Shown: positions 1,441 to 19,312 of the stretch, piece by piece | How the letters are laid out: every line of letters begins with the position of its first letter | Position numbering within the stretch: position 1 is the first letter of the stretch | NCBI GenBank assembly: GCA_035542215.1 | Contig: DATKLW010000033.1 | Location: 15,651 to 79,650, forward strand | DNA from: Thermoanaerobaculia bacterium | GTDB lineage: Bacteria; Acidobacteriota; Thermoanaerobaculia; UBA5066 | Reading direction: 5' to 3' | DNA length: 64,000 nucleotides | Notes under the pieces: generated by a model | What the model was told of the DNA's origin: nothing | What the model saw: only the letters and a program-made list of their open reading frames with translations | The model's database searches: none | Program-made: the position numbers and the translations under genes

Positions 1441-4359
1441 ATGAGCAACATGAACACGCGCGAGACGAAGGCCGGAGCGAAGACGGAAACGACGAGCGGC
1501 CCCACCCCGCGGCCGGGCGCCCGTGGGCTCACGTTCCGGCGCCTTTACACGGACGGCGTGACGCCCCCCTGGGACGCGATCGAGTGGGAGCTCCGGACGG
1601 CCGCGATCACGAACGAGAAGGGCGAGGTCTTCTTCGAGCAGAAGGACGTCGAGGTCCCGAAGGCCTGGTCGATGACGGCGACGAACATCGTCGCGCAGAA
1701 GTACTTCTCCGGGAAGCCGGGCACGCCGCAGCGCGAGCGCTCCGTCCGCCAGCTCATCGGCCGCGTCGTCGAGACGATCACGGGCTTCGGGGTCAAGGGC
1801 GGCTACTTCCGCACGGGCGCCGACCGCGACGCTTTCTCCGACGAGCTCGCGCACATCCTCGTGAACCAGGTCGCGAGCTTCAACTCGCCCGTCTGGTTCA
1901 ACGTCGGCGTCGAGCCGAAGCCGCAGGCCTCCGCCTGTTTCATCAACTCGGTCGGCGACTCGATGTCCTCGATCCTCGACCTCGCGAAGACCGAGGGGAT
2001 GCTCTTCAAGTTCGGCTCGGGCACGGGCTCGAACCTTTCCTCGCTGCGCTCCTCGACCGAGTCCCTCTCCTCGGGCGGCATCGCGTCCGGCCCCGTGTCC
2101 TTCATGAAGGGCTTCGACAGCTTCGCGGGCGCGATCAAGTCGGGCGGCAAGACGCGCCGCGCCGCCAAGATGGTGATCCTCAACGTCGACCACCCCGACA
2201 TCGAGGAATTCATCCTCTGCAAGGAGAAGGAAGAGAAGAAAGCCTGGGACCTCATCGACGCCGGCTGGGACGGCTCGTTCAACGGGGAGGTCTACAGCAA
2301 CATCGCCTTCCAGAACGCGAACCACTCGGTTCGCGTCACGGACGAGTTCATGAGCGCCGCCGAGACCGGCGGCACGCACACGACGAAGGCCGTCACGACG
2401 GGCGAGCCGATGGGGACGTTCGACGCGAAGTCGCTCCTCGTGAAGATGGCCGAGTCCGCCTGGGTCTGCGGCGACCCCGGCATGCAATACGACACGCTCA
2501 TCAACAAGTGGAACCCGTGCAAGACGACGCACCGGATCAATGCGTCGAACCCGTGCTCGGAGTACATGTTCATCGACGACTCCGCCTGCAACCTCGCGTC
2601 GCTGAACCTCATGAAGTTCGCGCTGGAAGACGGCGGCTTCGACGTCGAGAAGTTCGCGCACGCGGTGGACGTCGTCTTCGCGGCGCAGGAGATGCTCGTC
2701 TCCGAGGCGTCCTACCCGACGCCCGCGATCGAGCGGAACTCGCACGACTTTCGCCCGATCGGCCTCGGCTACGCGAACCTCGGCGCGCTCCTCATGTTCA
2801 ACGGCCTCCCGTACGACAGCGACGAGGGCCGCCACTACGCGGCCGCGGTCACGAGCCTCATGCACGGGCAGGCCTACCTGACGTCCTCGAAGATCGCCTC
2901 CGAGATGGGGCCGTTCGCGATGTACCCGCCGAACCGCGACGCGTTCCTCGAGGTCATCTCGATGCACCGCGACGCGGCGTACGCGGTCGCGAGGCCGGGC
3001 GTCCCGAAAGAGCTCTGGGAGGCGCAGCGCGCCGTGTGGGACCTCACGCTCGAGTCCGGGCGCCAGCACGGCTACCGCAACGCGCAGGCGACCGTCCTCG
3101 CGCCCACCGGCACGATCGGCTTCATGATGGACTGCGACACGACGGGCGTGGAGCCGGACCTCGCTCTCGTGAAGTACAAGAAGCTCGTCGGCGGCGGCAC
3201 GATCAAGATCGTCAATCAGACCGTCCCGCACGCCCTGACGCGCCTCGGCTATTCGGACGCCGAGATGCACGCGATCGTCCGCCACATCGACGAGAAGGGC
3301 ACGATCGAAGGCGCCCCGGGCCTGAAGAGCGAGCACCTCCCCGTCTTCGACTGCGCGTTCAAGGCGCTCGGCGGCACGCGCTCAATCGCGCCGATGGGCC
3401 ACGTCCGGATGATGTCGGCCGTGCAGCCCTTCCTCTCGGGCGCGATCAGCAAGACCGTCAACATGCCGAACGACGCGACGGTCGAGGAGATCGCCGACGT
3501 CTACATGCAGGGCTGGAAGCTCGGGCTGAAGGCGATCGCGATCTATCGCGACGGCTGCAAGCGCACGCAGCCGCTGAACACGTCGGCCTCGAAGAACGAC
3601 GACTCCGTGAAGGGCACGCGCGACGCGCGCGGCAACACGATCGCGCCGGCCGCCGCGGCCGCCGTCGCGCCCGCCCTGCGCCGGCACAAGCTGCCCGACG
3701 AGCGCCGCGCGATCACGCACAAGTTCTCGGTCGCGGGGCACGAGGGATACGTCACGGTCGGGCTCTACGAGGACGGGATGCCGGGAGAGATCTTCCTCAC
3801 GATGGCGAAGGAAGGCTCGACGATCTCCGGCCTCATGGACGCCTTCGCGACCGCAATCTCGCTGACGCTCCAGTACGGGGTGCCGCTCGAGGCGCTCGTC
3901 GAGAAGTTCAGCCACATGCGCTTCGAGCCGGCGGGCTACACGAAGAACCCCGAGATCCCGATCGCGAAGAGCCTCGTCGACTACATCTTCCGCTGGCTCG
4001 CGTCGAAGTTCCTGACCGCGGACCTCAAGGAGAAGGTCGGGATCATCTCGCGCGAGGAGCCCGGCCCCGCGACGCGGCCGCCCTCGCTCACGTCGTCGGC
4101 GACGCTCACGGCGGTCTCGGAAGCGGCGGCCGGCCCCATCGCCGCCGCGTTCCAGGCGATCGCCGCGATCAAGGGCGGGGCCGCGGAAACGGCCGAGGCG
4201 CGGCCGATCGGCTTCGCCGCGCCCGCGGTCTCCGCGTCGCGCCTCACGTTCGAGAACAGCGCCGACGCCCCGAGCTGCCACGAGTGCGGGAGCCTCATGG
4301 TCCGGAGCGGCGCCTGCTACAAGTGCCTGAACTGCGGGTCGACGAGCGGCTGCAGCTGA
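1441..4359 (+). CDS. nrdJ: Class II (adenosylcobalamin-dependent) ribonucleoside-diphosphate reductase NrdJ
   Basis: 972 aa; long RNR catalytic core (…SACFINSV…, …NPCSEYMF…). C-terminal Cys-rich Zn-ribbon tail CHECGSLMVRSGACYKCLNCG typical of NrdJ. Confidence 0.95.
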   Translation: MSNMNTRETKAGAKTETTSGPTPRPGARGLTFRRLYTDGVTPPWDAIEWELRTAAITNEKGEVFFEQKDVEVPKAWSMTATNIVAQKYFSGKPGTPQRERSVRQLIGRVVETITGFGVKGGYFRTGADRDAFSDELAHILVNQVASFNSPVWFNVGVEPKPQASACFINSVGDSMSSILDLAKTEGMLFKFGSGTGSNLSSLRSSTESLSSGGIASGPVSFMKGFDSFAGAIKSGGKTRRAAKMVILNVDHPDIEEFILCKEKEEKKAWDLIDAGWDGSFNGEVYSNIAFQNANHSVRVTDEFMSAAETGGTHTTKAVTTGEPMGTFDAKSLLVKMAESAWVCGDPGMQYDTLINKWNPCKTTHRINASNPCSEYMFIDDSACNLASLNLMKFALEDGGFDVEKFAHAVDVVFAAQEMLVSEASYPTPAIERNSHDFRPIGLGYANLGALLMFNGLPYDSDEGRHYAAAVTSLMHGQAYLTSSKIASEMGPFAMYPPNRDAFLEVISMHRDAAYAVARPGVPKELWEAQRAVWDLTLESGRQHGYRNAQATVLAPTGTIGFMMDCDTTGVEPDLALVKYKKLVGGGTIKIVNQTVPHALTRLGYSDAEMHAIVRHIDEKGTIEGAPGLKSEHLPVFDCAFKALGGTRSIAPMGHVRMMSAVQPFLSGAISKTVNMPNDATVEEIADVYMQGWKLGLKAIAIYRDGCKRTQPLNTSASKNDDSVKGTRDARGNTIAPAAAAAVAPALRRHKLPDERRAITHKFSVAGHEGYVTVGLYEDGMPGEIFLTMAKEGSTISGLMDAFATAISLTLQYGVPLEALVEKFSHMRFEPAGYTKNPEIPIAKSLVDYIFRWLASKFLTADLKEKVGIISREEPGPATRPPSLTSSATLTAVSEAAAGPIAAAFQAIAAIKGGAAETAEARPIGFAAPAVSASRLTFENSADAPSCHECGSLMVRSGACYKCLNCGSTSGCS

Positions 4360-9369: not shown

Positions 9370-9536
9370 TTGCCGATTCTAGAAGCGGTCGCGCCGCGAG
9401 CCTCCCGGGTGGTCCGGGCGCGCGAGAAGCGCGTCTTTTGGGCCTCCGGACGCATTCCTCCAGTCTTCGGACGCAATCGGCATGGTTCAAATGAGGGATG
9501 GACGAGCCCCGAGGCAGGCCCGGACACTGACCGTGG

Positions 9537-11174
9537 ATGACTCTCTCGCGCATCCCCTTCCATCGGCGCCTCGGCTTCAAGATCACGGCAACGGCGGCCG
9601 CGGCGATCCTCGTCCCCGTCGCGTTCGTCGCGGCGCTGACGATCCGCGCCCAGCACGAGGAGCTCGTCGCGCGGGCGCAGGGGAGCGCTTCGATCCTCTC
9701 CGAAACCGTGCGCAGCGCGACGCACGACTTCATGCTTCGGAACCAGCGCGAAGATGCGTACCGGATCGTCGAGATCGTCGGTCACGAGAGCCTCCGCAAG
9801 GACAGCTCGATCGAGAGCGTCCGGATCTTCAACAAGCGCGGCTCGACCGTGTACTCGACGGACCGGTCCGAGATCGGGCGGATCGCGGACAAGAGCGCGG
9901 GCGCGTGCGCGCCGTGTCACGGGGGGCCGGGAGCGCCCGTCACGAACCCGGATCCCGCGACGCGCAGCCGCATCACCACGGTCGGGGACCACCGCGTCCT
10001 GTCGTTCGTGACGCCGATCTACAACGAGAAGGACTGCGCGGTGGCGGGCTGCCACGCCTCCCCAAAGGACCAGCGCGTCCTCGGCCTCCTCGACGTCGCG
10101 CTCTCCCTGCGCGACGTCGACGACCGGCGCTCGGCCGCGACGTGGCGCATCGTCGGGTTGTCGCTCGTCGCGCTCGTGCTGCTCACGGCGCTCGTCTCGG
10201 CCATCGTCCGCCTTCTCGTCGTGCGGCCCGTTTCGGACATGCTCGCGGCGACGCGGGACCTCGCGGAAGGCCACACGGCCGCGCCGCTCGCGATCCGCAC
10301 CGAGGACGAGCTCGGACGGCTGGGGCATTCGTTCAACGAGATGAACGCGTCGCTCCGGCGGGCACGCGCCGAGCTGGAAGAGGCGGCGGAGAACCTCGAG
10401 CAACAGGTCGAGGACCGCACGGCCGCCCTTCAGCATGCTCAGGAGGCGCTCGTGCAATCCGAGAAGCTCGCCTCGCTCGGCACGCTGTCGGCGTCGATCG
10501 CGCACGAGATCAACAACCCGCTCGCGGGGGTCCTGACCTTCGCGCGCCTCATGTCGCGCACGCTCGAGGCCGGCGAGGTGAACGAGGACGCCCGCGCCGC
10601 GTGCCTGAAGAACCTCGGCCTCATCCAGCGCGAGACCGAGCGCTGCACGCGGATCGTGCGCAGCCTCCTCGACTTCGCGCGAGCCCGGCCGATCGAGCTC
10701 CTCTCCGTCGACGCCGTCGCGGCTCTCGAGGAGGCGCTCTCTCTCACGCAGCACAAGCTGCAGCTTCAGCAGGTCGTCCTGACCCGGGCGTTCGACGGGC
10801 CGGCCGTCGTGCGCGGCGACTTCGGCCAGCTGCGGCAGGTCTTCGTGAACCTGATCCTGAACGCGTGCGACGCGATGCCGGAGGGCGGGACGCTTGCCGT
10901 GACCTCGAAGAGGGTGGAGGACGGCCAGGCCGTGGAAATCGCGATCGCCGACACGGGCGCGGGCATCGCGCCGGAGCACCTGTCGAGGATCTTCGACCCG
11001 TTCTTCACGACGAAACCGATGGGGACGGGTCTCGGCCTCTCGGTCGTCTACGGCGTCGTGGAGAAGCACGGCGGGTCGATGAAGGTGCAGAGCCGTCGCG
11101 GCGAAGGCACGACGATGACGGTGCGGTTGCCGCTTGCCGGGAAGGCGGCGGCGCCGGCGGGCGCCGCCGTGTGA
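9537..11174 (+). CDS. Sensor histidine kinase (TM1, periplasmic domain with c-type haem motifs, TM2, HAMP, HisKA, HATPase_c)
   Basis: 545 aa. Two TM helices flank a ~155-aa periplasmic domain containing CAPCH (CXXCH) and CAVAGCH (CX4CH). Then HAMP, an H-box SIAHEINNPL and G1/G2 boxes. Confidence 0.85.
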   Translation: MTLSRIPFHRRLGFKITATAAAAILVPVAFVAALTIRAQHEELVARAQGSASILSETVRSATHDFMLRNQREDAYRIVEIVGHESLRKDSSIESVRIFNKRGSTVYSTDRSEIGRIADKSAGACAPCHGGPGAPVTNPDPATRSRITTVGDHRVLSFVTPIYNEKDCAVAGCHASPKDQRVLGLLDVALSLRDVDDRRSAATWRIVGLSLVALVLLTALVSAIVRLLVVRPVSDMLAATRDLAEGHTAAPLAIRTEDELGRLGHSFNEMNASLRRARAELEEAAENLEQQVEDRTAALQHAQEALVQSEKLASLGTLSASIAHEINNPLAGVLTFARLMSRTLEAGEVNEDARAACLKNLGLIQRETERCTRIVRSLLDFARARPIELLSVDAVAALEEALSLTQHKLQLQQVVLTRAFDGPAVVRGDFGQLRQVFVNLILNACDAMPEGGTLAVTSKRVEDGQAVEIAIADTGAGIAPEHLSRIFDPFFTTKPMGTGLGLSVVYGVVEKHGGSMKVQSRRGEGTTMTVRLPLAGKAAAPAGAAV

Positions 11175-11722
11175 GCGAGGTCCTTCTCCTGTGGATCGGG
11201 CGGACGGACTCCGCGCCGGAGATCCTCGAAGGCGTGCGGCGGAGCGTCGCGCGCGAGTTCGACCTCGCGGCCCGCGTCCGGCTCGCCCAGGAGAGGCCCG
11301 TCGCCGCGTTCGACGCGCGGCGCGGCCAGCACTCCTCCACGCGGATCCTCGCCTGGCTGCAGGACCGGCACGACGGGGCGCACCGCATCCTGGGCGTCAC
11401 GGACGCGGACCTCTTCATTCCGGTTCTGACGTTCGTCTTCGGCGAGGCACAGCTCAACGGCCGCGCGGCCGTGGTCTCGACGGCCCGCCTCGGCGACACG
11501 CCCCTGATCCCCGGAGAGGCGGCGCGGATCGCGCTGCGCCTCCAGAAGGAAGCCGTGCACGAGCTCGGTCACACGTTCGGGCTCCTGCACTGCCCCGATT
11601 CGCGCTGTGCGATGGCGCGCTCGCCGAGCCTGCGCCACGTCGACGCGAAGTCCCCCGCCCTTTGCCGCGCCTGCCGCGCCCGCAGCCGCGAACTCTCGGA
11701 AAACGGAGATCCCCATGAGTAA
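11171..11722 (+). CDS. Archaemetzincin-like zinc metalloprotease (peptidase M54 family)
   Basis: GTG start overlaps the kinase stop (GTGTGA). The motif HELGHTFGLLHCPDSRCAMA...CRAC equals HEXXHXXGXXHCX4CXM-X17-CXXC, diagnostic of archaemetzincins. The 3' end overlaps the response-regulator start by 8 nt. Confidence 0.75.
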   Translation: MSEVLLLWIGRTDSAPEILEGVRRSVAREFDLAARVRLAQERPVAAFDARRGQHSSTRILAWLQDRHDGAHRILGVTDADLFIPVLTFVFGEAQLNGRAAVVSTARLGDTPLIPGEAARIALRLQKEAVHELGHTFGLLHCPDSRCAMARSPSLRHVDAKSPALCRACRARSRELSENGDPHE

Positions 11723-13109
11723 GAAAAGCACGCGAATCCTGATCGTCGACGACGAGGAGATCATCCGGGAGTCCCTCTCGGGCTGGCTCGGCAAGGACGG
11801 CTACACGATCGGGACGGCGCCGGACGGCCTTTCCGCGCTCCGGATGATGGAAGAGGGCTCGTGGTCGATCCTCCTCGCGGACCTCAAGATGCCCGGCATC
11901 GACGGGCTCGAGCTCCTCCGGCGCGTCAAGGCGAAGTGGCCGGACACCTCGGTCCTCATCATGACGGCCTTCGCCACGGTCGACACGGCCGTGAACGCGA
12001 TGAAGTCCGGCGCGTTCGACTACGTCGTCAAGCCCTTCGACCCGGAAGAGGTCAGCCTCGTCGTCGAGAAGATCGTCGCGCAGCAGGCCCTCGTCCGCGA
12101 GAACGTGATCCTCCGGAAGGCGCTCAAGAAGGAGTACGTTTTCCACGACTTCGTCACGAAGAGTCCGGCCCTCCTCGCGACGCTCGAGCTCGCGAAGACG
12201 GCCGCCCACAGCCCGTCGACGATCCTCGTCCTTGGGGAGAGCGGCACGGGCAAGGAGGTCCTCGCGCGGGCGATCCACGCCGAGAGTCCGCGCGGCGGCA
12301 AGCCGTTCGTCGCGATGTCGTGCGCGGCGCTCACGGAGACGCTCCTCGAGTCCGAGCTCTTCGGCTACGAGAAGGGAGCCTTCACGGGCGCGAACGGCCG
12401 GCGGGAAGGGAAATTCGAAGCCGCGAGCGGAGGGACGCTGTTCCTGGACGAGATCGGCGACATCAGCGCGAAGCTCCAGCTCGACCTCCTGAGGGTCCTG
12501 GAGGAGCGCCGCGTCACGCGCGTGGGCGGCACGGAGTCGCTGCCCGTCGACGTGCGGATCATCGCGGCGACGAACCGGGACCTGAGACGCGCGGTGGAGG
12601 AAGAGCGTTTCCGGCAGGACCTCTATTACCGGCTGAACGTCATCACGATCACGCTCCTCCCGCTGCGCGAGCGCAAGGAGGACATCCCGCTTCTCGTCGA
12701 GCGCCTGCTCGAGCAGCTCGGCTCCGAGCTCAAGCGCCCCGTCGAAGGCGTCTCGCCCGAAGCGATGGCGATCCTCCTCGCGCACGCGTGGCCCGGCAAC
12801 GTCCGCGAGCTGCGCAATGTCCTCGAGCGTGCGATCGTCGTTTCGGACGCGCCGATCCTCGAGGCCCGGCACCTCGGCCTGAACCTCCAGGAGGGCGTGG
12901 GAGCGAGGCCGATGCCGGAGCATCCGGCGTCCCTCGAGGAGATCGAGCGCCAGTACATCGGGAGCGTCCTGAAACTGAGCGGCGGCAACGTCACGCAGGC
13001 GGCCCGCATCCTCGACATCGACCGGGTGACCCTCTACGCCAAAATTCGCAAGTACGGGCTGAAACGCGCAGAGGGCGGGGAGTTCGAACCCTCAACGCCG
13101 AGCCGATGA
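11715..13109 (+). CDS. Sigma54-dependent response regulator (NtrC family: REC, AAA+ sigma54 activator, HTH)
   Basis: MSKKSTRILIVDDEE...LLADLKMPG receiver; GESGTGKE Walker A; GAFTGA motif; C-terminal Fis-type HTH. Start ATG at 11715 with a GGAGA RBS. Confidence 0.9.
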   Translation: MSKKSTRILIVDDEEIIRESLSGWLGKDGYTIGTAPDGLSALRMMEEGSWSILLADLKMPGIDGLELLRRVKAKWPDTSVLIMTAFATVDTAVNAMKSGAFDYVVKPFDPEEVSLVVEKIVAQQALVRENVILRKALKKEYVFHDFVTKSPALLATLELAKTAAHSPSTILVLGESGTGKEVLARAIHAESPRGGKPFVAMSCAALTETLLESELFGYEKGAFTGANGRREGKFEAASGGTLFLDEIGDISAKLQLDLLRVLEERRVTRVGGTESLPVDVRIIAATNRDLRRAVEEERFRQDLYYRLNVITITLLPLRERKEDIPLLVERLLEQLGSELKRPVEGVSPEAMAILLAHAWPGNVRELRNVLERAIVVSDAPILEARHLGLNLQEGVGARPMPEHPASLEEIERQYIGSVLKLSGGNVTQAARILDIDRVTLYAKIRKYGLKRAEGGEFEPSTPSR

Positions 13110-13225: not shown

Positions 13226-13242
13226 GTGGCCTGGTCCTTGCG
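13226..13242 (+). promoter_or_regulatory. Sigma54 (-24/-12) promoter
   Basis: TGGCCTGGTCCTTGC: GG and GC separated by exactly 10 nt (TGGC-N7-TTGC), matching consensus TGGCAC-N5-TTGC. The predicted TSS is ~3-5 nt before ATG 13257. It lies directly downstream of the sigma54 activator gene. Confidence 0.6.
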
Positions 13243-13256
13243 CTACCAGAAGTGCC

Positions 13257-13508
13257 ATGTTGACCGAAACCACGACCACCTGCCCATGGCTGAAACAAGT
13301 GGTGATGCTCTACTGCGACGCCTGCCCCACCAAGAAGATGGTGCCGCGTGACCAGCTCGTGTCCCAGGGCCCTTGCCTGGCCGGCTCCTTCAAGGAGTGC
13401 GCGATGTACCGCGAGATGGCCCAGAGGCTCGGGGCCGGCGCCGACGACAGGGTTGTGAATACGGAGGCGAGCCGCGAGGCCGCTTCCGGGAGGGAGGTCC
13501 CGTCATGA
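13257..13508 (+). CDS. Small Cys-rich hypothetical protein (83 aa)
   Basis: ORF has 5 Cys (CPW...YCDAC...GPC...EC). It is the first ORF after the sigma54 promoter and would be near-leaderless. No homology recognised. Confidence 0.35.
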   Translation: MLTETTTTCPWLKQVVMLYCDACPTKKMVPRDQLVSQGPCLAGSFKECAMYREMAQRLGAGADDRVVNTEASREAASGREVPS

Positions 13509-13588
13509 TCGCCACCATCCCGCTCGCCCTTCTCGCCGTTCTGACGCTCCTTGCGCTGGCCCATCAGAGCCGGGTCCGTCCGTCCTGA
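13505..13588 (+). CDS. 27-aa hydrophobic single-TM micropeptide
   Basis: Strong SD GGGAGGGAGG 8 nt upstream of ATG; MIATIPLALLAVLTLLALAHQSRVRPS. Sits immediately 5' of the Fe-S subunit gene. Confidence 0.4.
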   Translation: MIATIPLALLAVLTLLALAHQSRVRPS

Positions 13589-13601: not shown

Positions 13602-14510
13602 ATGACTCTCAACCGCCGCAACCTGTTCAGGATCGCCGGCGCTGCGGGCGCGGCCACGGTCGCGGGCCGTGCGCTTTCGTCGGCGATGACACCGGGCGCC
13701 CCAAAGACCACCGCCAATGCGGTCCTGGTGGACACGACGCGCTGCGTCGGCTGTCGCGCCTGCGAGGCCGCCTGCTCCGAGGCAAACCAGCTCGCCGAGC
13801 CCGAGAAGCCCGGCGACGCCGCCGTGTTCGCGTCGCGCCGCCGGACGGGCCCCACGAGCTTCACGGTCGTGAACAAGTCGACCGAGAAGAGCCCGAATGG
13901 AGAGGACCGCTACGCGAAGATGCAGTGCATGCACTGCGTGTCGCCCGCGTGCGCGTCCGGCTGCGTCGTCGGAGCGCTCGAGAAGACGCCGGCGGGCCCG
14001 GTCGTCTACCACGCGGGCCAGTGCATCGGCTGCCGGTACTGCATGATCGCGTGCCCGTTCTCGGTCCCGAAATACGAATACGCGAAGGCCGCCCCGCTCG
14101 TGAAGAAGTGCACCTTCTGCGCCGAGCGCCAGGGCCAGGGCCTTCCGCCCGCGTGCACGGAGGCCTGCCCTTCGGGCGCGCTCCTGTTCGGCAAGCGGGC
14201 CGACCTCCTCGAGGAAGCGAGGACCCGCATCTACCAGAACCCGACGCGGTACACGCACGAGATCTACGGCGAGGACGAAGCCGGGGGAACGAGCTGGCTC
14301 TACCTCTCGGACGTCCCGTTCACGAGCCTCGCCCTCCCCGGCGAAATCGAGAAGAGGTCGTACCCGGAGCTCGCGGAAGGCGCGCTCTCGGCGGTCCCCC
14401 TCGTCGCGACCCTGTGGCCGCCCCTCCTCATGGGCCTCTACACCTTCAGCAAGCGGCGCCACGACGTCGCGGAAGAAGGAAACGGGCGCAAAGGAGACGG
14501 TCATGAGTAA
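13602..14510 (+). CDS. Tat-exported 4Fe-4S ferredoxin-type electron-transfer subunit (HybA/NrfC/DsrO-like) with C-terminal TM anchor
   Basis: Twin-arginine signal MTLNRRNLFRIAGAAGAATVAG. Four Cys clusters CVGCRACEAAC, CMHCVSPACASGC, CIGCRYCMIACP and CTFCAERQ...CTEACP. C-terminal hydrophobic helix; RBS GAGGAGAAG. Confidence 0.85.
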   Translation: MTLNRRNLFRIAGAAGAATVAGRALSSAMTPGAPKTTANAVLVDTTRCVGCRACEAACSEANQLAEPEKPGDAAVFASRRRTGPTSFTVVNKSTEKSPNGEDRYAKMQCMHCVSPACASGCVVGALEKTPAGPVVYHAGQCIGCRYCMIACPFSVPKYEYAKAAPLVKKCTFCAERQGQGLPPACTEACPSGALLFGKRADLLEEARTRIYQNPTRYTHEIYGEDEAGGTSWLYLSDVPFTSLALPGEIEKRSYPELAEGALSAVPLVATLWPPLLMGLYTFSKRRHDVAEEGNGRKGDGHE

Positions 14511-15747
14511 CGTGATGAGCGACGGCCTGAACCGCCCGGTCCCCTTCCCCGCGTTCGTTCTGGACAAGATCTGCCTCGGAATGCCCGCGAAGACCTACGC
14601 GAAGAGCCTCCTGACGAAGACGAACGCGATCTACGCCGCCATCCTCGCGATCGGCCTCCCCACTCTCGCCTACCGCTACTGGAAGGGAATGGGCGCCGTG
14701 AGCAACCTCTCCCAGACGAACCCGTGGGGCATCTGGGTCGGCATCAACATCATCTGCGGCATCGCGCTCGCGGCCGGCGGCTACACGGTGGCCGCGACCG
14801 TCTACGTCTTCGGCCTCGAGCAGTACCGGCCGATCCTGAGGCCCGCGATCCTGACGGGGTTCCTCGGCTACGTCTGCGCGATCAGCGGCCTCATCGTCGA
14901 GCTCGGCCAGCCGTGGCGGCTTCCCTACCAGCTCTTCCTGACGCCGGGCACGACCGCCGTCATGTTCGAAGTCGGCATGTGCGCGTTCGCCTACCTGATC
15001 GTCCTCGGTCTCGAGATGCTTCCCGCGGGACTCGAGTGGCTCGGACTCGCCCGCGCCCGCCGCATCATGGGAACGCTCACGATCGGGATCGTCGTCCTCG
15101 GCATCACGCTCTCGACGCTCCACCAGGCCTCGCTCGGCGCCTTCTTCCTCATGGTGCCGGGCAAGCTCCACCCGCTCTGGTACTCGCCGTATCTCCACGT
15201 CTTCTTCTTCATCTCCTCGATCTCCGCGGGAATCGGGATGATCATCTTCGAGAGCACGGTCTCGCGCCGCGCGTTCCGCGACGAGCTCGACCCCGAGGCG
15301 CCCGTCGACCTCGACGCGCTGCAGCTCGGCCTCGCCAAGGGCGGCGCGGTCGTCCTCTTCGCGACCTTCTTCATCCGCCTCCAGGGCCTCGTCGTCTCCG
15401 GGCGGTGGGACCTCCTGTTCACGGGCTGGGGCGCCTGGTTCGCGCTCGAGCTCGTCGGCTTCATCCTCTTGCCGTCGCTCCTCTTCGCGTTCGCCGTCCG
15501 CACGCAGAGCGTCACGCTCACGCGCGCGGCCGCCGTCATGGCGGTTCTCGGCGTCGTCCTGAACCGCATCAACGTGTCCCTCATCGCCTACAACTGGAAC
15601 GTCCCCGCCTCGGACCGGTACGTCCCGTCGATGGGCGAGATCGTCCTCACGATCCTGCTCCTCACGTGCGGCGTTCTCGCCTTCCGCTGGATCGTCAACC
15701 GCATGCCCGTCCTTCGCGAGCATCCGGATTGGCGCGGCAGCCACTGA
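14503..15747 (+). CDS. NrfD/PsrC/HybB/DsrP-family polytopic membrane quinone-interacting subunit
   Basis: 414 aa, ~10 TM helices, NrfD-family sequence character. Start overlaps the Fe-S gene stop (ATGAGTAA). Confidence 0.85.
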   Translation: MSNVMSDGLNRPVPFPAFVLDKICLGMPAKTYAKSLLTKTNAIYAAILAIGLPTLAYRYWKGMGAVSNLSQTNPWGIWVGINIICGIALAAGGYTVAATVYVFGLEQYRPILRPAILTGFLGYVCAISGLIVELGQPWRLPYQLFLTPGTTAVMFEVGMCAFAYLIVLGLEMLPAGLEWLGLARARRIMGTLTIGIVVLGITLSTLHQASLGAFFLMVPGKLHPLWYSPYLHVFFFISSISAGIGMIIFESTVSRRAFRDELDPEAPVDLDALQLGLAKGGAVVLFATFFIRLQGLVVSGRWDLLFTGWGAWFALELVGFILLPSLLFAFAVRTQSVTLTRAAAVMAVLGVVLNRINVSLIAYNWNVPASDRYVPSMGEIVLTILLLTCGVLAFRWIVNRMPVLREHPDWRGSH

Positions 15748-15763: not shown

Positions 15764-16429
15764 ATGCACGCGAACGACCTCCTCAGCCCGCACGCAACCA
15801 AGGCCATCGAGTACGTGCTCGCGGTCTCGTATCTCCTGCTCTTCATCCCCTTCTGGCGCTTCGTGAACGGCGCCACCGCCGCGGAGTCCCTCGCGTTCTC
15901 GTGGTTCCAGGTCCCGGCGAACGTCCACCTGCACCGCGGCCACTCCTGGGCGAAGACGTTCGGGGGCGCGGTGGCGGTCGGTCTCGACGACTTCGCGCAC
16001 AAGATGATCGGCCCGCTCGATTCCGTCCAGTTCCCCGCGGTCGGCTCCGCCCTCCGGCAGGGGCAGAAGGCCTTCTCGGTCGTCGCGGACGGCAAGTCCT
16101 TCGACGTCCTCTCACCGGTCGACGGCAACGTCGTCGCGCTGAACGAATTCGTCCGCGCCCATCCGTCCGACGCGGTCCGCGACCCTTACGGCACGGGCTG
16201 GCTTCTCAAGGTCGAGCCCCGCTGGCTCACGGCAAACCTCAAGAACCTCGTCTCCGGCGACGGGGCCCGCCGCTTCCTCGACGCGGCCGCCCAGGTGCTC
16301 GCCGGCCGCATGAGCCCCGAGCTCGGCATCGTCCTCCAGGATGGCGGCACGCCGGTTCACGGAATCGCCCGCGAGATCGACCCCGCGAACTGGGACTCTC
16401 TGGTCCGGACGTCTCTCAAGGGCGAGTGA
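15764..16429 (+). CDS. Membrane-anchored glycine-cleavage H-protein-like (lipoyl-carrier fold) protein, lipoyl-Lys position conserved
   Basis: N-terminal TM helix. Soluble domain aligns with E. coli GcvH: HSW (HEW), AVGLDDFA (VGITEHA), ADGKSFDVLSPVDGNVVALN ([21 protein letters not shown]; K aligned) and DPYGTGWLLKVEP (EPYAGGWIFKIK). Confidence 0.7.
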   Translation: MHANDLLSPHATKAIEYVLAVSYLLLFIPFWRFVNGATAAESLAFSWFQVPANVHLHRGHSWAKTFGGAVAVGLDDFAHKMIGPLDSVQFPAVGSALRQGQKAFSVVADGKSFDVLSPVDGNVVALNEFVRAHPSDAVRDPYGTGWLLKVEPRWLTANLKNLVSGDGARRFLDAAAQVLAGRMSPELGIVLQDGGTPVHGIAREIDPANWDSLVRTSLKGE

Positions 16430-16439
16430 GGAGTCCGCG

Positions 16440-16790
16440 ATGAACACACGCCTCCGCTTCCTCGCGGCGACTTTCCTCCTCTCCCTTTCCGCGACGCTGC
16501 TCGCGGGGGCGCTCCCGAACCTCCCGAAGGACATCGCGTTCCCCCAGGGCGACGGCAGCCCGGGAGTCGTGATCTTCCGGCACGAAGATCACATCGATGC
16601 CTCGCAGCCGGACTGCACGATCTGCCACCCGAAACTCTTCTCCATCGTCAAACGCACCGCCTCTTCGGCCGCCCCCGCCGCGATCCGCCACGCCGAGATG
16701 GAAAAGGGCAAGAGCTGTGGCTCCTGCCACGACGGCAAGACCGCTCACGGGCTCTGGGACGACTGCGGAACGTGCCACAAGGCAAGGTGA
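16440..16790 (+). CDS. Trihaem c-type cytochrome, cytochrome c7 (PpcA)-like
   Basis: Signal peptide plus three CXXCH (CTICH, CGSCH, CGTCH). FRHEDHIDASQPDCTICH parallels PpcA FPHKAHQKAVPDCKKCH. Confidence 0.8.
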   Translation: MNTRLRFLAATFLLSLSATLLAGALPNLPKDIAFPQGDGSPGVVIFRHEDHIDASQPDCTICHPKLFSIVKRTASSAAPAAIRHAEMEKGKSCGSCHDGKTAHGLWDDCGTCHKAR

Positions 16791-16798
16791 GGTGACCC

Positions 16799-17497
16799 AT
16801 GACGCCTCTCGAATTCCTCCAGCTCGCCGGCATCTTCCTCGCGGGCCTCGTCGTACGGCTCCTCGCGTTCCTGCTCGTGCTCGCGGTCTGCACGCTGCCG
16901 ATCATCGCCGTCTGGGCGTTGTGGACCGCGTGGCAGAAGCTCCGTGACCGGCGCATCGGCCTCGTCGACCTCGCCGGGCTCGAGCTCGCCGAGGCGCACC
17001 ATTACGCGCCGGGCCACACGTGGCTCGCGCGCAAGGGCCGCGGCACCGTCCGCGTCGGACTCGACGAGATCGCGGGGCGGCTCCTCCACGCGCCCACGAG
17101 CGTCTCGCTCCCGCGGCCGGGAACCGTCCTCGCCGCCGGCCTCCCCGCCGCGACCGTGAACTGCGGCGGCCGCTCGGCCTCGATCACGGCTCCGGTGTCG
17201 GGCACCGTCGTCGCGATCAACCAGGCGGTCCAGCGCGATCCCTCGATCCTCGAGGACTCGCGCTACCGGAACGGCTGGCTCTTCTCGATGAAGCCCGCGA
17301 CGGCCTCGTTCCTCACGCTTCCGACGGGACCCGCCGCGCGCGCGTGGTTCCGGGACGAGACGGCGCGCTTCTCGCACGCGCTCGAGACCGAGCTCGGCCT
17401 CCTCGCTGCCGACGGCGGAGAGCTCGTCGTCGAGGCGCCCGCTCTCCTCTCCGAGGAGAAGTGGCAGCACCTCGTCGGGGAGTTCCTGAAGGGCTGA
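16799..17497 (+). CDS. Membrane-anchored GcvH-like protein (two N-terminal TM helices), lipoyl-Lys replaced by Gly
   Basis: GHTWLARKGRGTVRVGLDEIAG and DSRYRNGWLFSMKP match the GcvH fold. The position of the lipoyl-Lys aligns to NCGGRSASITAPVSG, with no Lys. Confidence 0.65.
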   Translation: MTPLEFLQLAGIFLAGLVVRLLAFLLVLAVCTLPIIAVWALWTAWQKLRDRRIGLVDLAGLELAEAHHYAPGHTWLARKGRGTVRVGLDEIAGRLLHAPTSVSLPRPGTVLAAGLPAATVNCGGRSASITAPVSGTVVAINQAVQRDPSILEDSRYRNGWLFSMKPATASFLTLPTGPAARAWFRDETARFSHALETELGLLAADGGELVVEAPALLSEEKWQHLVGEFLKG

Positions 17498-17520: not shown

Positions 17521-17553
17521 GCGCGGGGCGGTTCGTCCGCCCCGCGTTTTCGT
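17521..17553. terminator. Bidirectional Rho-independent terminator between convergent genes
   Basis: GCGGGGCGG-TTCG-TCCGCCCCGC hairpin followed by GTTTTCG; A-rich on the opposite strand. Confidence 0.55.
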
Positions 17554-17562
17554 CTCAGAGGG

Positions 17563-18018
17563 TCAGCGCTTGCCGAAGAGCTTGTCGAAAGCGGACCGGG
17601 CGCCGTCGGGCGTGTCCGCGGCTTTCGCGCCGGTCAGGTCCATGCTCACGACGGGCGCATAGAGCGCGCATTCGTTCGCCTTCGACTTTGCGGCGATCGG
17701 CGCCGGGATCGGCTGGCGGCACTGCCAGCGCGCGGCCCCGTCGAAGTGGCGGCACTGGCTGCAGGCGTGGAGGGCGGCGCCGCACTTGCGGCACGCCGAG
17801 CCGATCGCCACCTCGGCGTCGTTCTTTTCGCCGCAGACCTTGCACCGGAAGACCTCGTCGCGGTGGGGGTCGGCCCCGCGGCCGCGGGGAGCGCCCTCCA
17901 GACGAGCCGGGCGGTCGGGAAAGAAGCCGCCGCCCCCGCCGGACGTTCCCGTGCCGCCGGTCCGGGCGCCGTCCTGATAGCCCTTCGAGCGGTACTTGCG
18001 ATCCGACATCTGCGTCAT
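17563..18018 (-). CDS. Hypothetical Cys-rich (double zinc-ribbon-like) protein
   Basis: 151 aa MTQMSDRKYRSKGYQ...CKVCGEK...CRKCG...CSQCRH...C. Only the C-terminal 151 aa of the 408-aa track ORF is plausible. Confidence 0.5.
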   Translation of the reverse strand: MTQMSDRKYRSKGYQDGARTGGTGTSGGGGGFFPDRPARLEGAPRGRGADPHRDEVFRCKVCGEKNDAEVAIGSACRKCGAALHACSQCRHFDGAARWQCRQPIPAPIAAKSKANECALYAPVVSMDLTGAKAADTPDGARSAFDKLFGKR

Positions 18019-18064
18019 TCTACGGTCCGCGGCCGGGGCCGTAGAATGCCGCCCGGGGACTGAC

Positions 18065-18427
18065 ATGAGATTTCTCCTCCGGATCCTCGTGAACGCGGCG
18101 GCCCTGTGGGTCGCGGCGTCGTTCGTGAGCGGCATCCACGCGGGCGGCCCCGGGTCCATCCTCGCGGTCGCCGTCGTCTTCGGCCTCGTGAACGCGTTCG
18201 TCCGTCCCCTGCTGAAACTCCTGAGCTGTCCCGTCATCCTCCTGACGCTCGGCCTCTTCACGCTCGTCATCAACGCCCTCATGCTCATGCTCACGGCGTG
18301 GGTCGGAGCCCAGTTCGGGATCGACTTCAAGGTGGCCGGGTTCTGGCCGGCGGCCTTCCTCGGCGCCTTGATCGTCTCCATCGTCTCGACGGTCCTGTCC
18401 TGGCTCATTCCGGACACGGCCTCCTGA
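18065..18427 (+). CDS. Phage-holin-4_2/DUF360-family small membrane protein
   Basis: MRFLLRILVNAAALWVAASFV...FVRPLLKLLSCPVILLTLGLFTLVINALMLMLTAWV; four TM helices, typical of this family. Confidence 0.6.
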   Translation: MRFLLRILVNAAALWVAASFVSGIHAGGPGSILAVAVVFGLVNAFVRPLLKLLSCPVILLTLGLFTLVINALMLMLTAWVGAQFGIDFKVAGFWPAAFLGALIVSIVSTVLSWLIPDTAS

Positions 18428-18454: not shown

Positions 18455-19312
18455 ATGCGTGTTCCGGTCTGCCTGATGGCTCTCTCCGTCCTCGCCGGCT
18501 GCGCGAAGCAGCCCGCCGCGCCGGCCACGAAGCCCGAGGTTCCCGCGGCTTCCGCCTCCGCCTCCGCGTCCGGCGTCGTGCCCGCCGCGCCGGCCCCGCA
18601 GATGGTCACCGTCTCCGGCGCGATTCTCGAGACGATGGACGCGTCCGAGTACACGTACCTGCGCCTCAAGACCTCGAGCGGCGAGGTCTGGGCCGCCGTG
18701 AGCAAGACGAAAGTCAAAAAGGGTGACACGGTCACGGTCACGAACGCGATGGTGATGGACGGATTCCAGAGCAAAACGCTCAACCGCACGTTCGATCACA
18801 TCCTCTTCGGCGTCCTCGAAGGCCCCGGCGGCGCGTCGCCCGCCGCGGGCACGGCCACCGGCGCGCCCGCCGCCGCTCTTCCGATGGTGTCCGACCACCC
18901 GCCCACGGCGGGGACGACCGGCGGCGAGACCCCGCAGCAGATGGCCGCTCAGCACGGCCAGGCCGCGGGAGGTCCGGCCGACGCACCCGACGTGAAGGTT
19001 CCGAAGGCGGAAGGCGCGAACGCGAAAACGGTCGCCGAGCTTTACGCGCAGCGCACCGCGCTCAAGGGCACCGAAGTCACGGTTCAGGCGAAGGTCGTCA
19101 AGGTCACGTCCGGCGTGATGGGCCGGAACTGGCTCCACGTGCGCGACGGCTCGGGCTCGAAGACCACGAAGACCAACGACCTCACGGTGACGAGCGCGGC
19201 GACGGCGAAGGTGGGCGACGTCGTGACCGTAACCGGCCTCGTCTCGGTCGACAAGGACTTCGGCGCGGGCTACGCCTATCCCGTCATCATTGAGAGCGCG
19301 AAGCTGAAATAG
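18455..19312 (+). CDS. Lipoprotein with two tandem OB-fold (BOF/YgiW-like) domains
   Basis: Lipobox LAGC. Two internally similar ~90-aa repeats (VTVSGAILE...TKVKKGDTVTV and VTVQAKVVKV...AKVGDVVTVTG) separated by a Gly/Ala/Pro-rich linker. Confidence 0.5.
   Translation: MRVPVCLMALSVLAGCAKQPAAPATKPEVPAASASASASGVVPAAPAPQMVTVSGAILETMDASEYTYLRLKTSSGEVWAAVSKTKVKKGDTVTVTNAMVMDGFQSKTLNRTFDHILFGVLEGPGGASPAAGTATGAPAAALPMVSDHPPTAGTTGGETPQQMAAQHGQAAGGPADAPDVKVPKAEGANAKTVAELYAQRTALKGTEVTVQAKVVKVTSGVMGRNWLHVRDGSGSKTTKTNDLTVTSAATAKVGDVVTVTGLVSVDKDFGAGYAYPVIIESAKLK

Follow-up and report, generated by a model that had tools for sequence, protein, structure and literature searches.

Membrane-anchored GcvH-fold proteins without the lipoyl-lysine, putative accessory subunits of a σ54-controlled HmcBC/HybAB-type respiratory complex

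Two genes in a 64,000-nt stretch of DNA (the window, at its full length) encode membrane-anchored proteins of the GcvH fold, here called copy 1 (221 amino acids) and copy 2 (232 amino acids), in which glycine takes the place of the lipoyl-lysine of glycine cleavage H proteins. We propose, with a probability of roughly 60%, that they serve, without being lipoylated, as accessory subunits in a respiratory membrane complex of the HmcBC/HybAB type that is under σ54 control. The G+C content of the window is about 70% and, among the matches listed in a profile scan, its nearest genome is a metagenome-assembled genome (MAG) of Thermoanaerobaculia (Acidobacteriota), with a protein identity of 86%.

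Both copies match the Pfam family GCV_H (PF01597), with scores of 59.6 bits (copy 1) and 67.7 bits (copy 2) against a gathering score of 22.2, and solved H proteins match both with E-values of about 1e-15. Each carries the HxW, PxSG and PYGxGW motifs of this hybrid barrel-sandwich fold. Both nevertheless stay below the cut-offs of TIGR00527, the GcvH equivalog (55.5 and 56.6 bits against 115.85), of NF045810 (32.1 and 25.8 bits against 150) and of TIGR03077 (31.9 and 29.7 bits against 144). The two copies align with each other by BLASTP over 167 residues without gaps (34% identity, E 7e-24), and have in common a C-terminal extension of about 65 residues that is absent from canonical H proteins. 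In an alignment of 117 full-length copy 1 orthologues, the near-invariant residues are H57, G59, H60, W62, D75, D76, F77, P118, G121, N127 and D140-W146 in the domain, and Q192-D-G-G195, W210 and R215 in the extension. One orthologue (P0101) is listed with the Pfam family PF28260. An earlier note on this DNA (hereafter the original prediction) had described both products as GcvH-fold proteins with N-terminal membrane anchors, and on both points it was right.

The lipoyl-lysine sits 8 residues before the proline of the P-[VI]-[SA]-G motif in the H proteins of E. coli, T. thermophilus, pea and M. tuberculosis. The hairpin of copy 1 reads D-G-K-S-F-D-V-L-S-P, with G110 at -8 and K111 at -7 relative to P118, and that of copy 2 reads G-G-R-S-A-S-I-T-A-P, with G124 at -8 and R125 at -7. 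In MAFFT alignments with GcvH references the lysine column is occupied by G110 and G124, and K111 stands opposite R125, as it does in the ungapped BLASTP alignment of the two copies. Predicted structures place the turn of each hairpin at the two residues before the basic one (D109-G110 in copy 1, G123-G124 in copy 2). With phmmer, K111 is paired with the lipoyl-lysine only by way of two indels, one deletion and one insertion.

The same columns were read in 139 GcvH-like family members drawn from 80 genome loci, the best 80 of at least 574 loci found in a profile scan of one genome per species; all counts out of 80 given below refer to this sample. The canonical lysine column holds G in 54 members, S in 33, E in 12, A in 11 and K in 3, and the following (+1) column holds R in 73, K in 31, Q in 12 and H in 5. 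Since the usual residue at +1 is arginine, this column cannot be a conserved lipoylation site. Position 111 is K in 66% of the 117 copy 1 orthologues and otherwise Q, R, E or T. The remaining third or so includes proteins 63-83% identical to copy 1 and encoded in the same operon; such orthologues from the same class read D-G-E-P (locus L003, 83% identical), G-G-Q-P or G-D-T-P. Hairpin positions 105-116 as a whole are conserved at 38-71%, among the lowest values in the domain. As close orthologues of copy 1 have E, Q or T at position 111, its lipoylation appears very unlikely. The original prediction had aligned a modified lysine in copy 1 and a glycine in copy 2, and had proposed a split between a lipoylated carrier and a non-lipoylated paralogue. 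The glycine of copy 2 stands (G124), but the lysine of copy 1 misses the register by one residue, stands in the column of R125 and is poorly kept. The same note had named a copy 1 lysine outside the hairpin-loop position as the observation that would speak against it; this is what we found, and the carrier part of the proposal fails.

Copy 1 and copy 2 close what we read as a single transcription unit, running from a σ54 promoter-like element to an intrinsic-terminator-like hairpin (Table 1). The gene order is 4-Cys protein, micro-peptide, HmcB-like Fe-S protein, HmcC-like NrfD-family protein, copy 1, cytochrome c7 and copy 2. Within this operon, the neighbours of the two copies are Fe-S, NrfD and cytochrome c7 genes rather than GcvT or GcvP genes, and no gene for a lipoyl ligase or a dihydrolipoamide dehydrogenase is present. 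The Fe-S and NrfD genes have the arrangement of an NrfCD-type module, a four-cluster ferredoxin with a twin-arginine translocation (Tat) signal adjoining a Pfam NrfD membrane protein. Across 59 orthologues the Fe-S protein has the same sixteen cysteines, which would suffice for four [4Fe-4S] clusters. Its scores with the NCBIfam models are 352.9 bits for HmcB (NF045715, E 1.3e-105, cut-off 420) and 235.6 bits for HybA (E 7e-70, cut-off 263). The NrfD-family protein reaches 477.1 bits with HmcC (NF045714, E 4e-143, cut-off 550) and 244 bits with HybB (cut-off 450). It is presumed to be the quinone-interacting subunit. Only two of its histidines are conserved, H207 and H223, and a haem b wire through it was rejected on this ground. 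The periplasmic cytochrome c7 is optional, being present in 26/80 loci.

The 4-Cys protein is encoded by the first gene of the operon in 32 of the 80 loci. Searches of Pfam, NCBIfam and PDB profiles returned no relative of it, and its homologues are all annotated 'hypothetical protein'; the four cysteines could bind zinc or an Fe-S cluster. At the position of the unannotated micro-ORF (open reading frame) that follows it, a hydrophobic ORF of 22-44 amino acids (22-29 in 19 cases) was found in 22 out of 22 loci, a count made with no control region for comparison. About 13 of these 22 ORFs start with MIA or MIL, and those of the Anaeromyxobacter type are quite different. The case for the micro-ORF thus comes mainly from its position and from closely related loci, its sequence similarity being clear only among closer relatives. 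By analogy with HmcD in Hmc, the micro-peptide may be a small subunit of the complex.

Table 1. Predicted genes and sequence elements of the operon and of its upstream regulatory region (window coordinates).
Feature	Coordinates	Strand	Features and matches
Sensor histidine kinase	9537..11174	+	Pfam HAMP, HisKA, HATPase_c
Archaemetzincin-type (Peptidase_M54) zinc protease gene	11171..11722	+	HELGHTFGLLHC-x4-CAM-x17-CxxC
NtrC-type σ54-dependent response regulator	11715..13109	+	Pfam Response_reg, Sigma54_activat, AAA_lid_14, HTH_8
σ54 -24/-12 promoter-like element	13227..13242	+	TGGCCTGGTCCTTGCG; read from sequence, upstream of operon
Small cytoplasmic 4-Cys protein (83 amino acids)	13257..13508	+	Invariant C9, C20, C40, C48 (CP-x9-C-x19-C-x7-C)
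Unannotated micro-ORF (27 amino acids)	13505..13588	+	One hydrophobic helix, MIATIPLALLAVLTLLALAHQSRVRPS; ATG overlaps stop codon of 4-Cys gene (ATGA)
Tat-exported Fe-S protein, HmcB/HybA-like	13602..14510	+	C-terminal membrane anchor; Pfam Fer4_11, TAT_signal
NrfD-family integral membrane subunit, HmcC/HybB-like	14503..15747	+	Pfam NrfD, E 1.8e-14
Copy 1	15764..16429	+	Single-pass anchor, GcvH-fold domain, C-terminal helical extension; G110 at canonical lysine position, K111 at +1
Periplasmic trihaem cytochrome c7 (117 amino acids)	16437..16790	+	Signal peptide, three CxxCH; Pfam Cytochrome_C7, E 6e-15; NCBIfam nanowire_3heme, E 2.8e-19
Copy 2	16799..17497	+	Hydrophobic N-terminal helix or hairpin, GcvH-fold domain, same C-terminal extension; G124 at canonical position, R125 at +1
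Intrinsic-terminator-like hairpin	17521..17557	+	11 pairs (10 G-C), T-rich tail; marks operon end

Downstream of the terminator lie two further genes on the same strand, one for a four-helix membrane protein of PF04020 (Phage_holin_4_2; 17996-18427) and one for a lipoprotein-like protein with weak OB-fold matches (18455-19312). They are syntenic with the operon only in Thermoanaerobaculia-type loci (L001-L008 and L022).

Flanking charges and natural fusions predict that the GcvH-fold domains of both copies are cytoplasmic. In the copy 1 family, the mean number of K+R is 0.47 on the N-terminal flank of the anchor and 2.52 on the C-terminal flank, as counted on only the 64 of about 117 members that passed the anchor hydrophobicity cut-off, which the window's own copy 1 failed. 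The corresponding means for the copy 2 family are 0.01 and 4.33. The hydrophobic N-terminal span of copy 2 is about 45-46 residues long and contains an invariant R20, and the anchor of copy 1 carries the invariant polar residues K13, E16 and Y17 near its periplasmic end. In two relatives (P0341 and P0373), a signal peptide is followed by a tetrahaem cytochrome c with four CxxCH motifs, one copy-1-type helix (ATKxxEYL) and a GcvH-like domain. Attachment of c-type haem takes place in the periplasm. The haem sites of these fusions being periplasmic, their GcvH-like domain should therefore be cytoplasmic and the N-terminus of the copy-1-type helix periplasmic. A third fusion (P0313) is made of copy 1, a basic stretch, a second hydrophobic helix and a cytochrome c7. 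Cytoplasmic GcvH domains and a complex spanning the membrane had been part of the original prediction, where the location was deduced from one sequence; it is now supported by family-wide charges and by fusions. With the Fe-S and haem partners in the periplasm and the GcvH domains on the other side, the assembly would therefore span the membrane.

Other fusions connect the same domain to soluble partners. A receiver (REC) domain is fused to a lysine-less GcvH-like domain in P0353 and in the product of L081:15700-16836. The latter is membrane-anchored and adjoins a second Fe-S/NrfD pair with its own kinase; its neighbourhood also holds a formate-dehydrogenase-like molybdoenzyme with FdhE. In six loci (L039, L046, L054, L065, L068 and L074), the 4-Cys protein, which is signal-less, is fused to an anchor-less GcvH-like domain with the same C-terminal extension as the window copies. 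In a distant relative of 1391 amino acids (P0348), a lysine-less GcvH-like domain occurs three times in tandem, in one chain with an FAD-linked oxidase, a 4Fe-4S dicluster domain and two CCG (HdrD-like) domains; here too the H-protein fold seems to serve, in a cytoplasmic redox enzyme, as something other than a carrier.

The association of these genes is widespread. When 1.84 billion representative proteins were searched exhaustively with a profile, 726 clusters at 50% identity were obtained (E <=1e-30). At the score threshold that we set, on which the count depends, HmcB- or HmcC-like genes adjoin the GcvH-like gene in 67 of the 80 loci, from Acidobacteriota, Anaeromyxobacter, Syntrophobacteraceae, Desulfarculales, Gemmatimonadota, Planctomycetota, Ignavibacteriota and Bacteroidota. 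Each locus has 1-3 GcvH-like paralogues. The gene order of the window is conserved in Thermoanaerobaculia, other Acidobacteriota, Vicinamibacterales, Anaeromyxobacter and a Bacteroidales MAG; other orders, again with 1-3 paralogues, are found in Syntrophobacteraceae, Desulfarculales, Deferrimicrobiaceae, Gemmatimonadota, Planctomycetota and Ignavibacteriota. Cultured Anaeromyxobacter also carry the cluster (sp. PSR-1 and A. terrae), which makes our proposal testable in culture.

The operon is likely to be controlled by a periplasmic haem-based redox sensor acting through σ54, as judged from the genes and motifs upstream of it. Of 35 related loci, 18 have the sequence TGGC-N7-TTGC at 22-34 nt upstream of their first gene, where 0.028 would be expected per 225 nt. 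The periplasmic domain of the histidine kinase (residues ~124-163) contains a CxxCH motif (CAPCH) and a Cx4CH motif (CAVAGCH), both of which recur in about 50 co-located orthologues from different phyla, and no Pfam sensor domain matches this region. The kinase is thus a probable c-type haem redox sensor, and the conservation of both motifs suggests a dihaem one. The kinase is syntenic with the operon in 53/80 loci and the σ54 response regulator in 54/80. The protease gene between them overlaps the stop codon of the kinase and the start codon of the regulator. Its product has the signature HExxHxxGxxxC-x4-CxM-x17-CxxC, and PF07998 matches at the same position in loci L081 and L083.

We propose the following arrangement. 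The core of the complex would consist of the Tat-exported periplasmic HmcB-like protein, with four [4Fe-4S] clusters, and of the cofactor-less NrfD-family HmcC-like membrane subunit, a pairing also found in the Hmc, Hyb, Qrc, Psr and Nrf complexes. Through this core, electrons would pass between the quinone pool and carriers in the periplasm, here probably the trihaem cytochrome c7; we infer both the partners and the direction of this electron flow. Copy 1 would be a single-pass protein with an outer N-terminus and an inner C-terminus, and copy 2 would enter the membrane with a longer hydrophobic helix or hairpin. On the cytoplasmic side, each would present its GcvH-fold domain and the C-terminal helical extension with the invariant D-G-G loop and tryptophan. 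The anchor helices, with their invariant K13/E16/Y17 in copy 1 and R20 in copy 2, would probably pack against HmcC. Quinone sites of NrfD-type subunits are located at the periplasmic end, where K13, E16 and Y17 of copy 1 lie. As HmcC has only two conserved histidines, we see no electron route to the cytoplasm, and the GcvH-fold proteins are therefore read as cofactor-less accessory subunits. Their domains would not be swinging-arm carriers; together with the DGG-loop extension they would provide the membrane subunit, on its cytoplasmic side, with a platform for docking or regulation, and the co-transcribed 4-Cys protein would bind to this platform. The platform may also regulate the complex, as the receiver-domain fusions suggest. 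Of all this, what the sequences themselves show is the fold, the register of the lysine column and how poorly a lysine is kept there, the structure and synteny of the operon, the fusions and the bias of the flanking charges.

Several points weigh against this interpretation. What speaks for the GcvH-like proteins being subunits is synteny and fusions, from which we infer their physical membership of the complex, and the docking or regulatory role is a step further in the same direction. Neither the invariant D-G-G loop nor the basic +1 residue finds an explanation in it. The AlphaFold model shows the anchor of copy 2 as one continuous helix of 51 residues, so that one or two membrane crossings are both possible. 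Thirteen of the 80 loci have no HmcBC-like gene at our threshold, four of these loci being shorter than 9 kb; some of the loci without adjacent HmcBC are second copies in genomes that also hold a full cluster and some are short contigs, and no other conserved partner emerged among the thirteen. The rule on the position of the lipoyl-lysine was established on the Bacillus stearothermophilus E2 domain, as far as the account in PMC6270654 goes, and neither on H proteins nor on the ligases of this organism, and a dedicated ligase may modify K111 in this lineage. Because the E2 experiment was not made on an H protein, we keep a small residual probability for such a modification.

Rubrerythrin-like ORFs (…AFAGESQANRKYLAF…) were observed near GcvH-like genes that HmcBC does not adjoin, in loci L024 (~9477-9977) and L060 (~3341-3871); L027 has the same gene layout as L024. 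This neighbourhood could be a coincidence or a link to oxidative stress.

A more far-reaching interpretation, to which we would give a modest chance, is that the lysine-less GcvH folds, the 4-Cys protein and the micro-peptide make up a new cytoplasmic module of NrfD-type complexes that couples the redox state of periplasmic quinones and cytochromes to the cytoplasm. Such a module might be controlled by a two-component system, at which the REC fusions hint, and gate the passage of protons or quinone in the NrfD subunit, or it might be a thiol- or metal-based redox relay. If this were true, many phyla would have given the H-protein fold a new task in anaerobic respiration, that of transmembrane coupling or signalling.

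The GcvH-fold domains could alternatively serve mainly in signalling, reporting or controlling in the cytoplasm what state the NrfD-type complex is in, for instance through the two-component system. The two REC fusions, one of them anchored in the membrane beside an Fe-S/NrfD pair and its kinase, agree with this possibility, as does the linkage of the haem-motif kinase and the σ54 regulator to the operon. The GcvH-like genes are however located inside the structural operon, 3' of the Fe-S and NrfD genes and not among the regulators, and the presence of 1-3 paralogues per locus with conserved membrane helices suggests stoichiometric subunits. We consider a mainly signalling role unlikely. The interaction that it supposes is hypothetical, and it overlaps with the accessory-subunit explanation that we prefer rather than competing with it.

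It is quite unlikely, in our view, that the GcvH-fold domains and the 4-Cys protein form a redox or thiol exit or entry point, with reducing equivalents transferred across the membrane as in HmcEF or DsrMK. The four invariant cysteines of the small protein, its fusion to GcvH-like domains in six loci, the FAD oxidase and HdrD-like CCG Fe-S module joined to such domains in P0348, and the rubrerythrin-like ORFs beside the genes in some loci would all fit such a function. But HmcC, with its two conserved histidines, has no haem b ligand pairs or other cofactor sites, the operon encodes no HmcE/HmcF- or DsrM/DsrK-like protein, the GcvH-like domains have no predicted redox cofactor, and the four cysteines could equally hold a structural zinc.

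The carrier scheme of the original prediction, in its full form, has copy 1 shuttling reducing equivalents on the cytoplasmic face with a dithiol arm and copy 2 as a structural or regulatory paralogue. The lysine of copy 1 does lie beside the hairpin tip, 3 of the 139 relatives have K in the canonical column, and a link between the Act complex and the cytoplasmic lipoyl carrier LarG has been hypothesised in Pelobacter (PMC3543383). Against it, K111, which shares its column with R125, gives way to R, Q, E, T or H in about one third of orthologues, on a hairpin that is itself poorly conserved; HmcC offers no obvious electron route to the cytoplasm; and the operon lacks the ligase and dehydrogenase genes mentioned above. 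In the passage of PMC6270654 that summarises Wallis & Perham (1994), a lysine placed beside the lipoyl domain's tip in the B. stearothermophilus pyruvate dehydrogenase E2 component was not lipoylated, and correct placement at the turn's tip was considered crucial for lipoylation. On register and conservation we have set this scheme aside as very improbable, despite the gapped phmmer alignment. Least probable of all, and rejected here, are periplasmic GcvH domains acting as scaffolds that dock the Fe-S protein or the cytochrome, like the lipoyl-like domains of periplasmic adaptor proteins, for the flanking charges show a strong positive-inside bias, an n-region of a signal peptide is absent, and the fusions (a cytochrome beyond a single helix, REC domains, signal-less 4-Cys proteins) point to a cytoplasmic domain.

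About half of the 240 matches listed are annotated 'glycine cleavage system protein H' or 'lipoate-binding protein'. Such annotation is misleading and would inflate the glycine cleavage and reductive glycine pathways predicted for MAGs of Acidobacteriota, Myxococcota and Desulfobacterota. Canonical GcvH (PF01597, TIGR00527) is a soluble protein of about 130 amino acids that acts with GcvT and GcvP and carries its lysine at the hairpin tip; the window copies are longer, anchored and extended, have no lysine there, and belong to a respiratory operon. In literature on glycine cleavage or GcvH together with NrfD-, Hmc- or HybA-type complexes or with the host genera, we found no description of this module and no experimental work on any family member, and a 2021 review of the NrfD family does not mention glycine or GcvH.

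Carriers of the LbpA/LarG type are, as known so far, soluble and dependent on the canonical lipoyl-lysine. They are GcvH-like, and a function with membrane or Hdr-like redox systems, not in glycine cleavage, has been proposed for them (sHdr sulfur oxidation; Act-LarG, PMC3543383); the Act link to a soluble lipoyl carrier hypothesised in Pelobacter is the idea nearest to ours that we found; the window copies differ in lacking this lysine and in being membrane-anchored. Cofactor-less barrel-sandwich-hybrid domains are also known from NqrA and RnfC, in ion-translocating respiratory complexes. This is a precedent at the level of the fold only, since NqrA and RnfC are large soluble subunits without an anchor helix of their own and work in complexes that have no relation to the NrfD family.

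The closest relatives of the core are Hmc of Desulfovibrio (HmcABCDEF) and HybA/HybB of hydrogenase-2, with which the window proteins share the Tat signal, the 16 cysteines, the tail anchor and the NrfD fold; the best matches of both subunits are to HmcB/HmcC first and then to HybA/HybB. Hmc also has a periplasmic c-type cytochrome partner in common with the window operon. In contrast, the 16-haem HmcA, the cytochrome b HmcE and the CCG protein HmcF have no counterpart between promoter and terminator, where two GcvH-fold membrane proteins, the 4-Cys protein and the micro-peptide are found in their place. The [NiFe] genes hybO and hybC adjoin HybA/HybB in hydrogenase-2, and the window operon contains no hydrogenase gene. 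True membership of Hmc or Hyb is ruled out by scores under the equivalog cut-offs and by the absence of these partner genes.

In its regulation, the operon resembles that of CbcBA in Geobacter, an inner-membrane quinone oxidoreductase with a σ54 promoter and a dedicated response regulator, BccR (bioRxiv 10.1101/2021.04.15.440034). Both are inner-membrane quinone-cytochrome c modules under σ54 and response regulator control in metal-reducing bacteria, but CbcBA is composed of a dihaem cytochrome b and a heptahaem cytochrome c, without an NrfD/Fe-S pair or GcvH-like subunits. The complex predicted here is thus of a known kind, and its membrane-anchored lysine-less GcvH-fold subunits appear to be undescribed. 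NrfD-family complexes (Nrf, Psr, Hmc, Qrc, Dsr, ACIII, Hyb) hold a central place in anaerobic respiration, and their coupling of quinone chemistry to ion movement is still debated. To these the operon would add a conserved and widespread variant whose membrane-anchored GcvH-fold subunits have no cofactor, and which comes with a 4-Cys partner and with its own haem-motif sensor kinase and σ54 regulator.

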